Notes: generated from the letters alone by a model not told the origin. A DNA stretch of 64,000 nt from Moorena sp. SIO3I8 (GCF_010692325.1 NZ_JAAHHW010000027.1:2640-66639); one strand, 5' to 3'. Positions 28,753 through 31,635 are shown, numbered from the stretch's first letter. Numbers and translations are program-made.

Positions 28753-31635
28753 TCAATTGCGCAGAATCAACCGTTGCCGATGAACATGTAACAAACGAAA
28801 CTCCTGCTGCGCCACCTGGTCCAACATATAAATAATATGCTCTGGTCGCAACATGGTGCCATCATTCAAACAACTCCCGACATACCGCAAAACCACCCCA
28901 GACTCCGCAACCTCCTCTTCACCATCTTTGGGTTTTTGGGGTTCCATCACCTCGAACTCAAATAAGCGATCGCATAAATTCACCCACTGCTTCTTACCCG
29001 ACTTCGTAAACCGCTCCCACCAAATTTCCTTACTACCCTTAATTGCTTCAATCCAACCCTGCCACTCTTCCCAAGACACCGATGACATTGCCTCAACTCG
29101 AATCAAATACTCAGCCTTTTCCAACAGCTGAGTTCCAGCAGGTTCCTTCAAATCCACTGCTTCAACCCCATACACCGGAATCTCTATAGGCAACTCAGAC
29201 ACCAGCCTTTCCCTAAACTCCTCAACTGGCATTTTCTCAGTTAACTCAAACTCCACAATCTCCCCACTACTAGACGCTCCCAAGGGCAATGCATTAGCAA
29301 TCATAATCCGAGCATTAGCCCGAAACCCCCCACTATAGCGAATTGGTAGTGACGCCCGTCTTACTGCTCTCTCAAACAGACTTGCCAAATCCAGATGACC
29401 CAACAAGGTCATATCCCCCAACTTTCCAAACCAAACCCGCAGCCGCTGATCCTTATTAGTATTGGGTTTAAAGTGACCAGCAAATTGCGGAATCTGCGGC
29501 GGGTCAATCACTACATTATGACCAAAATCAATCCCACACACACCACAGTGAGAACACCCATCAAAGGAACAATCCGGTACCGTTGCTGCATCTAAGGCCT
29601 TTTGTAAATCTTCCTTGAGCCAATTCTTATCAATTCCCGTATCAATATGATCCCAAGGCAAGGGAGCATCAAGGGCGTTAAGGGTTGAAGGTTGAAGGGT
29701 TGAAGGTTGTTCGCGTAGCGTGGCCTTTTGGCCAAGGGTTGAAGGTTGTTCGCGTAGCGTGGCCTTTTGGCCAAGGTTAGACGGTTGTTCGCGTAGCGTG
29801 GCCTTTTGGCCAAGGGTTGAAGGTTGAAGGTTTGAAGGTTGAAGGTTTGAAGGTTGTAGGTTAGCTGGTTGTAGGTTAGCTGGTTGCTCTGAACTTTCAA
29901 CCTTGGCCTTTTGGCCACGCTTCGCGAACAACCTTCCAACTTGCAACTCTTCTACACCCGCCATCACGTTCCATTCGCCATTTTCTACTTGGCGATATTT
30001 CCAGGTCAGACCTGATGAAGCGATCGCATTTTCCCAAGCACCAAATGCCCGATCCAAGCTTTCCATCCAGGCATCCATCCCTGCCCCCAATTCCCAAGCA
30101 CGGCGCACCACCGCACTTAAGCGTCTGTCACCCCGTCCGACAAAATCTTCCATGGCGGAAATCCGAACATCGGTGTAATTAACCTTCACCCCCCTGATCT
30201 GACCAAATACTTGTTTGAGCAATTCCTGCTTGCGTTTAAACTCCGAAGTCGATACGGAATGCCACTGGAATGGGGTGTGAGGTTTTGGGGTAAAATTAGA
30301 AACAGTTATGTTAAACTTAAGGGTTTTTCTCCCTTTTGCACGGCACTCCTGCTGCAACCAACGCACCGTTTCCGCAATCCCCAACACATCCGCATCCGTT
30401 TCACCGGGCAAACCAATCATAAAATAGAGCTTGACTTTCTCCCAGCCTTGCTCAAATGCCGTCTTTACTCCCCTGAGCAGTTCTTCATTAGTCAGTCCCT
30501 TATTCACAATATCCCGCATCCGCTGAGTTCCTGCTTCTGGGGCAAAGGTCAAGCCACTCTGGCGATTTCCCCCTAGGATATTGGCAATATTTTCATCAAA
30601 GCGGTCTACCCGCTGACTCGGTAGGGACAAGGAAATATTCTGATCCTTAAGACGATTTTTGATTTCCATCCCCACCGCTGGTAGAGCCAGGTAATCGGAA
30701 CAACTCAGGGATAGAAGGGAAAACTCGTTATACCCTGTAGCACGCATCCCTTCTTCAATAGCTTCCACCACTTTTTCTGGTGCCACATCCCGCGCTGGTC
30801 GAGTCAGCATCCCAGGTTGGCAGAACCGACAACCCCGAGTACAGCCCCGTCGCACTTCGATCTTGAGTCGGTCATGAACCGTTTGGATATAGGGTACTAG
30901 TCCAATAGCATAGGCAGGCATCGGTGTAGCCACACGCCGCAATATCCGCTTCGGCACATCAGGGCGGTTGGGTTTAACTGAGCCATCCTCAGTCATATCA
31001 TAGAATTGGGGGACATACACCCCTGGTATCTGAGCCAAATCCAGGAGTAACGCTTCTCGACTTAAGCCAGCTGCTTTGCCCTCTTCGATTACTAAGCCAA
31101 TCTCTGGCAACAATTCTTCCCCATCGCCAAGATCCACAAAATCTAAGAAATCAGCATAGGGTTCAGGATTCGATGTCGCCGTTTGTCCACCTGCAAAAAT
31201 TAGGGGGATTTCCGATATATCAAACTCAGCACGGTCTTTCCAGGTAAGGGGAATTCCTGCCAAATCCAACATTTCCAAGATGTTGGTTGCCCCTAATTCA
31301 TAGCTAAGGCTAAAGCCAATAATATCAAAATCTGTCAGAGGTCGCCGATTCTCGACAGCAAACAGAGGGGTTTGAGTGGAACGCAATTTAGCTGCCAAGT
31401 CTGGGGCGGGTAGATAGGCGCGATCGCATAACTGCCTAGGTTGACAATTCAATATATTGTAGAGGATGATATGGCCTAAGTTAGAAGCGCCCACTTCATA
31501 GATTTCTGGATAAGTCAATACCCAGCGTACCTCAGCTTCTTCCCAAGGTTTATGGACTGCTCCCAACTCGTTACCTAAGTAACGGGCTGGTCTGTTGATG
31601 TCTGGTGTTAGTATTTCCTCTACAGTGATTCCCAT
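28753..31635 (-). CDS. Fused B12-binding-domain radical SAM protein (TIGR03960-like) plus radical-SAM-associated DUF2344 domain (TIGR03936-like), with an in-frame repeat-element insertion
   Basis: Radical SAM cysteine motif CTRGCRFCQ and a C-terminal CSFDGCSHCGVCG cluster. Residues ~570-650 (QPANLQPANL...[13 protein letters not shown] x3...) are encoded by the dispersed repeat at 29676-29935. Confidence 0.8.
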   Translation of the reverse strand: MGITVEEILTPDINRPARYLGNELGAVHKPWEEAEVRWVLTYPEIYEVGASNLGHIILYNILNCQPRQLCDRAYLPAPDLAAKLRSTQTPLFAVENRRPLTDFDIIGFSLSYELGATNILEMLDLAGIPLTWKDRAEFDISEIPLIFAGGQTATSNPEPYADFLDFVDLGDGEELLPEIGLVIEEGKAAGLSREALLLDLAQIPGVYVPQFYDMTEDGSVKPNRPDVPKRILRRVATPMPAYAIGLVPYIQTVHDRLKIEVRRGCTRGCRFCQPGMLTRPARDVAPEKVVEAIEEGMRATGYNEFSLLSLSCSDYLALPAVGMEIKNRLKDQNISLSLPSQRVDRFDENIANILGGNRQSGLTFAPEAGTQRMRDIVNKGLTNEELLRGVKTAFEQGWEKVKLYFMIGLPGETDADVLGIAETVRWLQQECRAKGRKTLKFNITVSNFTPKPHTPFQWHSVSTSEFKRKQELLKQVFGQIRGVKVNYTDVRISAMEDFVGRGDRRLSAVVRRAWELGAGMDAWMESLDRAFGAWENAIASSGLTWKYRQVENGEWNVMAGVEELQVGRLFAKRGQKAKVESSEQPANLQPANLQPSNLQPSNLQPSTLGQKATLREQPSNLGQKATLREQPSTLGQKATLREQPSTLQPSTLNALDAPLPWDHIDTGIDKNWLKEDLQKALDAATVPDCSFDGCSHCGVCGIDFGHNVVIDPPQIPQFAGHFKPNTNKDQRLRVWFGKLGDMTLLGHLDLASLFERAVRRASLPIRYSGGFRANARIMIANALPLGASSSGEIVEFELTEKMPVEEFRERLVSELPIEIPVYGVEAVDLKEPAGTQLLEKAEYLIRVEAMSSVSWEEWQGWIEAIKGSKEIWWERFTKSGKKQWVNLCDRLFEFEVMEPQKPKDGEEEVAESGVVLRYVGSCLNDGTMLRPEHIIYMLDQVAQQEFRLLHVHRQRLILRN
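29676..29935. repeat. MITE-like dispersed repeat copy with internal tandem units (39-nt unit x3, 15-nt unit x2, ggttgaagg units) and inverted 30-nt termini, lying in-frame inside the radical SAM CDS
   Basis: ttgttcgcgtagcgtggccttttggccaag occurs three times direct (29705-29811) and once inverted (29903-29933). Every tandem unit length is a multiple of 3. Confidence 0.75.

Follow-up and report, generated by a model that had tools for sequence, protein, structure and literature searches.

A 24-nucleotide dispersed repeat of Moorena in the variable linker of a B12-binding radical SAM gene

The stretch of Moorena sp. SIO3I8 DNA analysed here (64,000 nucleotides, hereafter the window) holds on its minus strand a gene (28753..31635) for a 960-residue protein in which a B12-binding radical S-adenosylmethionine (SAM) part, TIGR03960, is fused to a DUF2344 part, TIGR03936. 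Between the radical SAM core and a cysteine-rich segment of this protein, the open reading frame (ORF) runs through a block of repeats that are also found in intergenic DNA. A first-pass annotation had taken the block for a MITE (miniature inverted-repeat transposable element) of about 260 bp, inserted in one piece and then expanded under selection for lengths divisible by three. Comparison of alleles, orthologs and other Moorena loci leads us to a different account: very probably, a mobile 24-nucleotide unit of Moorena has landed repeatedly in the tandem arrays of a loop in a working radical SAM gene, where it is translated as a tolerated linker.

A 24-nucleotide unit in the linker of a working gene

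The host gene is intact, working and under purifying selection. Its product scores 598.6 bits against TIGR03960 (cutoff 462.3) and 183 bits against TIGR03936 (cutoff 71.9), both above the curated cutoffs, which bears out the first-pass identification of the fusion; the Pfam matches PF19864, PF04055 and PF10105 (Radical_SAM_N2, Radical_SAM and DUF2344) are above cutoffs as well. Near model position 551, the exact place of the repeats, the TIGR03960 match is split in two. The best protein matches come from Moorena (formerly Moorea), with 89-98% identity and 882-971 residues, other cyanobacterial orthologs are 68-88% identical, and invariant residues number in the hundreds in the alignments, the CxxxCxxC and C-terminal cysteine motifs among them. 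The ratio of nonsynonymous to synonymous substitution rates (dN/dS) is 0.12-0.20 in every comparison of the window with nine Moorena alleles over the 2586 flanking nt, at a dS of 0.03-0.09.

These alleles are the same gene from nine other Moorena assemblies, ten alleles with that of the window. In all ten the flanks measure 1680 and 906 nt without insertion or deletion, and the proteins are near-identical except in the segment between GEWNVMAG and LPWDHIDTG, where the linkers are 60, 147, 153, 162, 207, 216, 273, 294, 312 and 327 nt long, all divisible by three. What varies in this segment is the number of QPxNL units (the (QP[SA]NL)n array runs from n = 2 to about 17), the number of GQKATLRE copies (0, 1, 3 or 5) and the presence of FAKRGQKA; some alleles read the same DNA as the FAKRGQKA region in another frame, as a 10-residue alternative block. 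At the DNA level, the alleles differ by the copy number of a 15-nt (7+8) array and by the presence or absence of an exact 24-nt unit, the core, which takes at least three positions, both orientations and two phases across strains. Thus the allele of protein P0004 has an inverted core and no direct ones, SIO2I5 has one direct core and no inverted one, and JHB has arrays only. The window and SIO4A1 are separated by a dS of 0.027, yet they carry three and five core copies, and the linker is rearranging much faster than point substitutions build up. The shortest linker, the 60-nt (20-residue) one of M. producens PAL, was considered as an ancestral empty state and rejected, as it is nested among array-bearing alleles on the tree; it is probably a secondary deletion.

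The mobile unit is exactly 24 nt long, TTCGCG(T/A)AGCGTGGCC-N4-GGCC. At site A, the filled form, ...gttggaaggttg[TTCGCGAAGCGTGGCCAAAAGGCC]aaggttgaaagt..., is present in the window, P0004 and SIO4A1 (in short, ggttg[24]aaggttgaaagt versus ggttgaaggttgaaagt), while SIO2I5 has the empty form, ...gttggaaggttgaaggttgaaagt..., and five further alleles are empty at the same place; the window core at this site is an exact 24-nt difference from the loci L095, L097, L099, L100, L101 and L102. Site B, in phase 0, holds one core copy in SIO2I5, three in the window and five in SIO4A1. Site C is filled in SIOASIH (L097; ...caacctt[ggccaaaaggccacgctacgcgaa]caaccctt...) and empty in its sister SIO3G5 (L102). 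At the filled and empty sites the boundaries cannot slide, the insert is exactly 24 nt and there is no target-site duplication. The insertion point in the gene reads GGTTG^AAGG, and the 39-nt tandem unit of the window is the sum of 24 and 15 nt. BLAST searches with the core removed recovered gap-free empty sites, for example L096 versus L095 (95.5% over 400 nt, 0 gaps), and one such pair lies outside any array: the M. bouillonii locus L075 reads ...gctcgtcg[24]agggtcatt..., versus an uninterrupted M. producens 3L locus (L063) at 94.7% identity. Because of this pair and of the exact allele differences, we conclude that the 24-mer itself comes and goes, and not a MITE of about 260 bp.

The 24-mer forms a predicted hairpin, TGGCC-N4-GGCCA, with a stem of 4-5 bp and a single-stranded DNA folding energy of -5.9 kcal/mol (z = -2.5). 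A GTAG lies at core positions 6-9, 2 nt 5' of the stem and not at the terminus, in 125 of 142 copies, with GAAG in its place in 17 of the 142.

Similar differences are found in other genes. The orthologous CheA-like genes of M. bouillonii (L009) and M. producens 3L (L060) differ in the positions, orientations and loop variants of their 24-mers, each site being empty in the other species, and loci L028 and L064 differ in loop variant (AATA versus TTTT) and in copy number. Judging from these alignments, such differences indicate what would be repeated turnover of the 24-mer.

The composition of the block in the window (Table 1) departs in several respects from its first description. The 30-mer TTGTTCGCGTAGCGTGGCCTTTTGGCCAAG occurs exactly five times in the window, at 29707, 29746 and 29785 (+), 4866 (+) and 45801 (-), versus an expected count of 0 (no matches in 100 shuffles); the three direct copies reported inside the gene are therefore exact. 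An inverted copy does lie at 29899-29936, with 87% complementarity, but it is no plain inversion, since it carries a TAG->AAG change and its loop is TTTT on the same (+) strand as in the direct copies. Among the reported unit lengths, Tandem Repeats Finder recovers 39 nt (x3.4, 29695-29826) and 15 nt (x4.4, 29812-29877), whereas a 9-nt unit does not exist: the array sub-units are 7 and 8 nt long (GGTTGAA / GGGTTGAA or GGTTTGAA) and alternate to give the 15-nt period, which breaks the proposed rule that every tandem unit in the block is divisible by three. The two further places named by the first-pass annotation are indeed intergenic; they have the same architecture as the gene block, GGTT arrays and a core followed by inverted AACC arrays, and what is common to them is building blocks and architecture, not one sequence of about 260 bp.

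As had been noted, the block is free of stops in the gene frame, where it reads QPANLQPANL... and then three times the translation of the 39-nt unit, ending [NT]L. Two further ORFs overlap it (29592..29939 (-) and 29903..30178 (+)) and are taken as spurious. The inverted pair of the linker has arms of 54 nt, 78% complementary, and the linker mRNA (window 29660-29960, (-) sense) folds at -107.6 kcal/mol versus -66.8 +/- 4.7 for shuffles (z = -8.8), in a hairpin with the sense array and core in one arm and the last antisense core and array in the other. We treat this hairpin as a by-product of the inverted copies; it may have a role in expression. A search of the repeat region against Rfam gave a chance match only (UCA1, E = 0.51).

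Table 1. Coordinates of the linker, its repeats and the related intergenic composites in the window
Feature	Position	Strand	Reading and remarks
Hypervariable linker, 98 residues (294 nt)	29662..29955	-	Between ...GEWNVMAG and LPWDHIDTG... in the alignments; encloses the whole repeat block
GGTTGAA/GGGTTGAA array, 15-nt period (7+8)	29680..29709	+	Coding strand reads QPSTLQPSTL
24-nt core, copy 1 (TTCGCGTAGCGTGGCCTTTTGGCC)	29710..29733	+	Antisense to the gene, phase 0, reads GQKATLRE
24-nt core, copy 2	29749..29772	+	39 nt (24+15) from copy 1, reads GQKATLRE
24-nt core, copy 3	29788..29811	+	Reads GQKATLRE
15-nt-period array, GGTTGAAGGTTTGAA units then two GGTTGTAGGTTAGCT units	29812..29886	+	Reads (QP[SA]NL)n
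Short sense GGTTGAA-type array carrying the inverted core	29889..29947	-	Encodes QVGRL[FAKRGQKA]KVESS
24-nt core, opposite orientation, variant TTCGCGAAGCGTGGCCAAAAGGCC	29905..29928	-	Sense, phase 0, reads FAKRGQKA
Intergenic composite, same family, core 4869-4892	4843..5004	+	GGTT arrays then inverted AACC arrays; between L13 (rplM) and truA-like ORFs
Intergenic composite, same family, core 45804-45827 (-)	45603..45836	-	15-nt array x5.9 at 45715-45803; between an OmpA-family ORF and fmt

The loop that houses the block, between the core (...GEWNV) and the Cys-rich segment (LPWDHIDTG...CSFDGCSHCGVCG), is poorly constrained. Across 91 orthologs it is 10-101 residues long and unalignable, and 20 of the 91 linkers hold an exact repeated 5-mer from other internal repeats. 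Orthologs of other cyanobacteria (P0018, P0037, P0051, P0057, P0099, P0115 and others) hold different tandem repeats here, namely 7-residue units of GVRSQES type, each 21 nt or three heptamers long, and units of 27 residues (FVGAGLEDNISEKP...). The loop is thus generally permissive, with repeat expansions recurring in several lineages. In Moorena and at least one related lineage, it holds oppositely oriented GGTTGAA-type arrays that read LKVE.. one way and QPxNL the other.

The related orthologs (P0023, P0032 and P0036, about 75% identity) have ...ELKVDKLKVERSNLQPSNLQPSNFQPANL... in the loop, and the DNA of P0032 has GGTTGAA arrays followed by TTCAACC arrays, so that the LKVE../..NLQPSNLQP scaffold is common at the DNA level. 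The array pair of the P0032 ortholog (L104), which can also form a hairpin, is shorter. No 24-mer was found in the 22.7 kb around it, and both the alignments and the P0032 DNA show the 24-nt core to be absent from orthologs outside Moorena. Because P0032 has the array scaffold without the 24-mer, we take the scaffold to be the older part: it would predate Moorena or have been acquired in parallel, and the 24-mers appear to be later, polymorphic, Moorena-specific additions. The first-pass expectation that orthologs should lack the insertion therefore holds for the core outside Moorena, but not for the inverted-array scaffold, which is common to a 75%-identical ortholog.

Structural modelling was of little help. 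Two AlphaFold2 models of the host protein had low confidence (pLDDT 48.4 with a 25-sequence alignment and 54.9 with 91 sequences), the linker residues 542-670 being coil at pLDDT 24-31 and parts of the catalytic core equally poor. The models were set aside for this reason.

The family across Moorena genomes

When one genome of each species was scanned for TTCGCGWAGCGTGGCCWWWWGGCC, at least 93 stretches came up, all of them, among the matches listed, from four Moorena genomes. This bears out the first-pass reading of a dispersed family. The sampled loci hold 142 copies, 83 with an identical 24-mer, and the loop variants are TTTT, AATA, AAAA, TATT and TAAA. The flanks share the consensus GGTTG^core^AAGGTT: AAGG follows on the 3' side in 114 of 134 unique contexts, versus a background of 0.46% per position, and TTG precedes the core in 88 of the 134. 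Six unique contexts share only N^AAGG (L001, L024, L078, L080, L089 and L092). Nesting is seen for about 30 copies, which lie in the loop of the same or of a related hairpin, as cgtggcc-g[core]aaaaggcc or cgtgacc-a[core]aaggtcaatcgc, the related-hairpin context reading ...CGTGACC-a[core]aAGGTCAATCGC. Nested 24-mers are also carried by a second related hairpin family, (GC)GWTCGCGTAGCGTGACC-loop-GGTCAATCGC, which often begins with or overlaps the sequence GCGATCGC, similar to highly iterated palindrome 1 (HIP1); its loci are L008, L012, L030, L033, L042, L047, L049, L058, L068, L072, L073, L076 and L087. Cores are co-oriented with GGTTNNN(N) arrays, and inverted AACC arrays are enriched 150-300 nt downstream.

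A minority of the copies, 26 of 142 (about 18%; 17 of 109 clusters), lie in frame in long ORFs. Ten host ORFs other than the radical SAM gene have a Pfam architecture: two CheA-like kinases, a CbiG-CobJ fusion, a CobN/Mg-chelatase, a GH38 mannosidase, a CHAT/TPR protein, a DHH-CBS-PolyA_pol protein, a histidine kinase, an IS605 TnpB and an nSTAND1 NTPase. Most inserts fall between Pfam domains, the exceptions being the histidine kinase, where the insert is within the HATPase_c region, and the nSTAND1 NTPase, where it is within the nSTAND1 match. In the IS605 OrfB/TnpB gene (L041, 64-1422 (-); HTH_OrfB_IS605, OrfB_IS605 and Cas12f1-like_TNB) the 24-mer sits in frame between HTH and OrfB. TnpB genes also adjoin the radical SAM gene in two alleles (L097 and L101).

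With the translated repeat as a peptide query against 5.8 billion proteins, 36 matches were obtained, 36 of 36 from Moorena and mostly 'hypothetical proteins' of 44-100 residues. This search matched short array ORFs and not the long host proteins, and it speaks for taxonomic restriction without giving a host count. The short proteins (P0121-P0156) are evidently ORFs called on arrays that are stop-free in several frames.

Reading frame, selection and the course of events

Each insertion of 24 nt and each array step of 15 nt adds whole codons, both lengths being divisible by three. The preservation of the frame is mostly arithmetic, intrinsic to the repeats, and not a product of selection in the host gene. 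The first-pass argument that unit lengths divisible by three reveal expansion under selection does not survive this comparison: the core is intrinsically 24 nt long, the 15-nt array also stands in intergenic DNA (x5.9 at 45715-45803), and of 25 spacings between adjacent non-coding cores, 15 are divisible by three (p = 0.009 versus one third), the mode being 39. Spacings of 31, 38, 46, 64 and 70 are also found; inside ORFs, all eight are divisible by three.

The canonical core is open in five of six frames and the AAG variant in all six. The stop-free sequence was considered as an adaptation and rejected, as shuffling the 24-mer at constant composition leaves at least five of six frames open in 93% of cases. 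The only stop-bearing frame (sense, phase 0: TTC GCG TAG) is used three times, and in 3 of 3 cases by the AAG variant, including the window copy at site A, where the canonical TAG would give an in-frame stop. Coding DNA holds an excess of AAG-variant clusters (7 of 11 versus 12 of 99; Fisher p = 3e-4). Selection is thus acting as a filter: few copies reside in ORFs, those that do are at linkers or loops, and the TAG->AAG change is enriched in coding copies.

Taken together, we propose the following course of events. In the loop of the radical SAM protein, array copy number would change by slippage or unequal recombination, and the arrays would offer the 24-mer many copies of its preferred target. 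After insertion, the 39-nt composite of 24 and 15 nt would be amplified in tandem to one, three or five copies. As both lengths are multiples of three, every such event would add whole codons and selection would only filter, removing insertions that bring a stop, so that a sense phase-0 copy has TAG->AAG, as well as hits in structured parts of proteins. Surviving copies would be translated as a neutral or near-neutral linker (FAKRGQKA, for example), with no function required. In the radical SAM enzyme itself, a neutral linker is the likeliest reading of the insert. The first-pass idea of a mostly non-coding dispersed repeat, tolerated in frame as a Gln/Pro-rich linker of a functional gene, is in this respect upheld.

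Several points weigh against this account or narrow it. The copy numbers are lower bounds, and the restriction to Moorena is provisional, as it holds among the matches listed. Translation through the insert and the neutrality of the peptide are judged from sequence, and the idea that the linker would be a disordered surface segment has its basis in alignment variability, not in structure. On the allele tree, site A needs at least two events or recombination, and the direction of each event may be insertion or precise excision. Where the core sits in an array, gene conversion from another array locus could look like insertion, and what speaks against this is limited to the nested copies and the L075/L063 pair, which lies outside arrays. 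Moreover, 13 of 16 antisense coding copies read (L)GQKATLRE, with one each reading WPxGHATR and AKRPRYAN (coding copies of L028, L032, L046, L064, L077, L084, L086 and the window), and pure neutrality does not account for this frame bias. As for the mover, a phmmer search with E. coli RayT against ORFs of at least 70 residues found no homolog in 810 kb of Moorena DNA, a sample that is a small fraction of the genomes and too small to decide the matter.

Among the rival explanations, the spread of 24-mers by gene conversion or replication slippage between arrays, with the target preference a mere reflection of flanking microhomology, is improbable, though the least so: most copies do sit in GGTTG...AAGGTT arrays with homology on both sides, and the 39-nt tandem amplification is certainly recombinational or slippage-based. 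Conversion may contribute inside arrays, but it cannot explain the exact 24-nt presence and absence in the unique, non-array context of L075 and L063, and copies at the six loci that share only N^AAGG, or nested in hairpin loops, also tell against it. Somewhat less credit is due to the view that a MITE-like composite of about 260 bp transposed into the gene as one unit and later expanded under selection for multiples of three. The block does share its architecture with the intergenic composites and does contain the inverted pair with 54-nt arms, and the loop may have received an original inverted-array element before the divergence of Moorena; but alleles carry the parts independently (P0004, SIO2I5 and JHB), with inverted and direct copies going separate ways, the unit of change is exactly 24 or 15 nt, neither terminal inverted repeats nor target-site duplications are present, the sub-units are 7 and 8 nt, and the periods of 15 and 24+15 are common in intergenic DNA too. 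The block was therefore not inserted whole, as the first-pass annotation had it.

A function for the block is still less probable, be it as a tunable spacer that sets the radical SAM core apart from the Cys-rich/DUF2344 part, as an mRNA hairpin acting on translation pausing, on co-translational folding or on the stability of the mRNA (a version that shares in the same low estimate), or as a contingency switch of 7- and 8-nt steps. The linker varies freely from 20 to 112 residues in one genus, M. producens PAL keeping 20, and the same element is found in at least ten unrelated proteins and is mostly intergenic; this outweighs in our view the strong folding of the linker mRNA, the inverted-array hairpin kept at the site in a 75%-identical ortholog, the GQKATLRE frame bias and the fast shifts of linker length relative to a dS of 0.03-0.09. 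None of 15 Moorena proteins came from a frameshifted allele, although a protein database would not hold such alleles. Finally, a decaying pseudogene that stays open through the repeat by chance has next to no probability. The repeat is stop-free in several frames and two spurious ORFs overlap it, so an open frame alone is weak evidence, but this alternative of the first-pass annotation is rejected because of the dN/dS of 0.12-0.20 in every comparison, the constant flanks without indels and the linker lengths that are all multiples of three, to which the scores well above the cutoffs and the preserved invariant residues and Cys motifs may be added.

Returning to the mobile 24-mer, our best guess at its mover, a tentative one, is a hairpin-recognising single-stranded DNA transposase of the HUH/Y1 type, either a REP-associated tyrosine transposase (RAYT; REP, repetitive extragenic palindrome) or an IS200/IS605 TnpA-like enzyme, because there is no target duplication, a short specific target adjoins one end (CCTT^ on the other strand), the unit has a hairpin and an internal GTAG, and insertions are nested in hairpin loops. 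HUH/Y1 systems (RAYT, IS200/IS605-like) also insert beside a short specific sequence without duplication, and GTAG-tagged REPs likewise have a GTAG close to a hairpin (PMC3733652). It is also possible, if rather doubtful, that the 24-mer is a still-active, ultra-small, site-specific element of a kind for which no transposition machinery is known, with N^AAGG as its target, which together with the 15-nt arrays acts as a genus-wide generator of translated linkers in dozens of Moorena proteins. Such an element would insert in array units or hairpin loops, without duplication and always as exactly eight codons, and the candidate enzymes would be a RAYT, an IS200/IS605-type Y1 transposase or something new. 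If this were true, the many close Moorena genomes with polymorphic sites would make the mechanism directly tractable.

Whatever the enzyme, the unusually well-defined mobile unit (24 nt, N^AAGG, polymorphic at a dS of 0.03-0.09) gives a practical route to the mover. For genome annotation, the stop-free arrays yield dozens of spurious Moorena proteins of 44-100 residues, and inflate or vary the lengths of real ones.

Other features of the window were recorded along the way. Just downstream of the region, an 879-residue ORF (24388-27027 (-)) is a bacterial homolog of the eukaryotic major vault protein, with Pfam matches to Vault repeats (223 bits), MVP_shoulder (181 bits), Vault_2, Vault_3 and Vault_4. 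Tandem repeats at 54829-55591 and 55854-55973 comprise a 378-nt duplication (x2.0, 95% identity) and a 48-nt repeat. Short heptamer arrays of differing sequence, more than 30 in number, occur throughout the window (for example 13437-13481, 18233-18295, 34102-34140, 40379-40438 and 63652-63688); together with the tandem repeats, they resemble the short tandemly repeated repetitive (STRR) content typical of filamentous cyanobacteria.

Comparison with known repeat systems

The small dispersed repeats (SDRs) of Nostocaceae are among the nearest known kinds, with intragenic REPs and the palindromic elements of Rickettsia. Elhai et al. reportedly defined SDR1-8 in 2008 as repeats of 21-27 nt with nested insertions, whose mobility was read from filled versus empty sites. 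The Moorena 24-mer is likewise cyanobacterial, very small, near-identical between copies and predicted to form a hairpin, with filled and empty sites, nested insertions (about 30 contexts) and a short specific target. It differs in its host, a non-heterocystous oscillatorian, in its target, N^AAGG in GGTTGAA-type arrays or hairpin loops, and in its frequent, documented in-frame residence in proteins. SDR5, according to a passage of PMC5861425, inserts at HIP1. By these operational features the 24-mer is an SDR-like element, a likeness drawn from description and not from sequence comparison with SDR1-8. The same passage of PMC5861425 states that SDR-like repeats were not known outside Nostocaceae, a range that the present element would extend. 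Literature searches on SDR5 and on Moorea repeats brought up no description of the 24-nt element, the SDR1-8 consensus sequences being outside this comparison; the family appears to be new, a Moorena-specific 24-mer without earlier description, while the kind of event is known from other bacteria.

With cyanobacterial MITEs the likeness is slight. Nezha, MaeMITE and the Anabaena MITEs include some that form in-frame fusions with ORFs (Wolk 2010; Fewer 2011; both as cited in PMC3184786), and both they and the 24-mer are non-autonomous dispersed repeats. MITEs, however, measure 70-400+ bp, with terminal inverted repeats of 15-30 bp, flanking direct repeats and a cognate insertion sequence, whereas the 24-mer has an internal stem of 4-5 bp in place of terminal inverted repeats, no target-site duplication and a length of 24 nt; it departs from MITEs on every criterion tested.

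REPs, palindromes of 20-40 nt that are mostly intergenic and RAYT-mobilised (Di Nocera et al. 2013, PMC3733652; Bertels & Rainey 2011, PMC3116915), are a partial match. In the superfamilies tagged by GTAG or CGTC, a minority of REPs lie wholly inside ORFs, and clusters of them encode 43-82 residues in Thauera and R. conorii (PMC3733652). The 24-mer, with its short hairpin, is also mostly intergenic and in ORFs in a minority of cases, and has GTAG 5' of its stem. Yet its GTAG is internal (positions 6-9) and is GAAG in a sub-family, its stem of 4-5 bp is much shorter than that of typical REPs, and its copies are mostly direct tandem ones, not the inverted doublets known as REPINs.

In-frame residence in working genes has a precedent in the Rickettsia palindromic elements (RPEs; Ogata et al. 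2000, Science 290:347, referenced by PMC3184786), which as summarised there are palindromic selfish repeats, in frame in many unrelated functional genes, where they are translated and are tolerated because the sites are permissive. Such residence is also reviewed for BRE, BOX and RUP elements (PMC3184786). The 24-mer resembles RPEs in lying in frame at permissive sites of several unrelated functional genes. RPEs, by contrast, measure about 105-146 bp and occur as single insertions in an obligate intracellular alphaproteobacterium, whereas the Moorena unit is 24 nt long and sits on microsatellite arrays. Translated palindromic selfish repeats, RPEs and intragenic REPs, would thus be extended to Moorena, a marine cyanobacterium with a large genome rich in natural products.

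The arrays themselves recall the heptanucleotide tandem repeats of STRR type that form heptamer arrays in cyanobacteria (PMC4679880). The GGTTGAA/GGTTNNN(N) arrays of Moorena are likewise tandem repeats of 7-8 nt, abundant between genes and occasionally translated in the 'reverse' orientation. They differ in that units of 7 and 8 nt alternate into a codon-compatible period of 15 nt, and in that the arrays are the landing site of a separate 24-mer.

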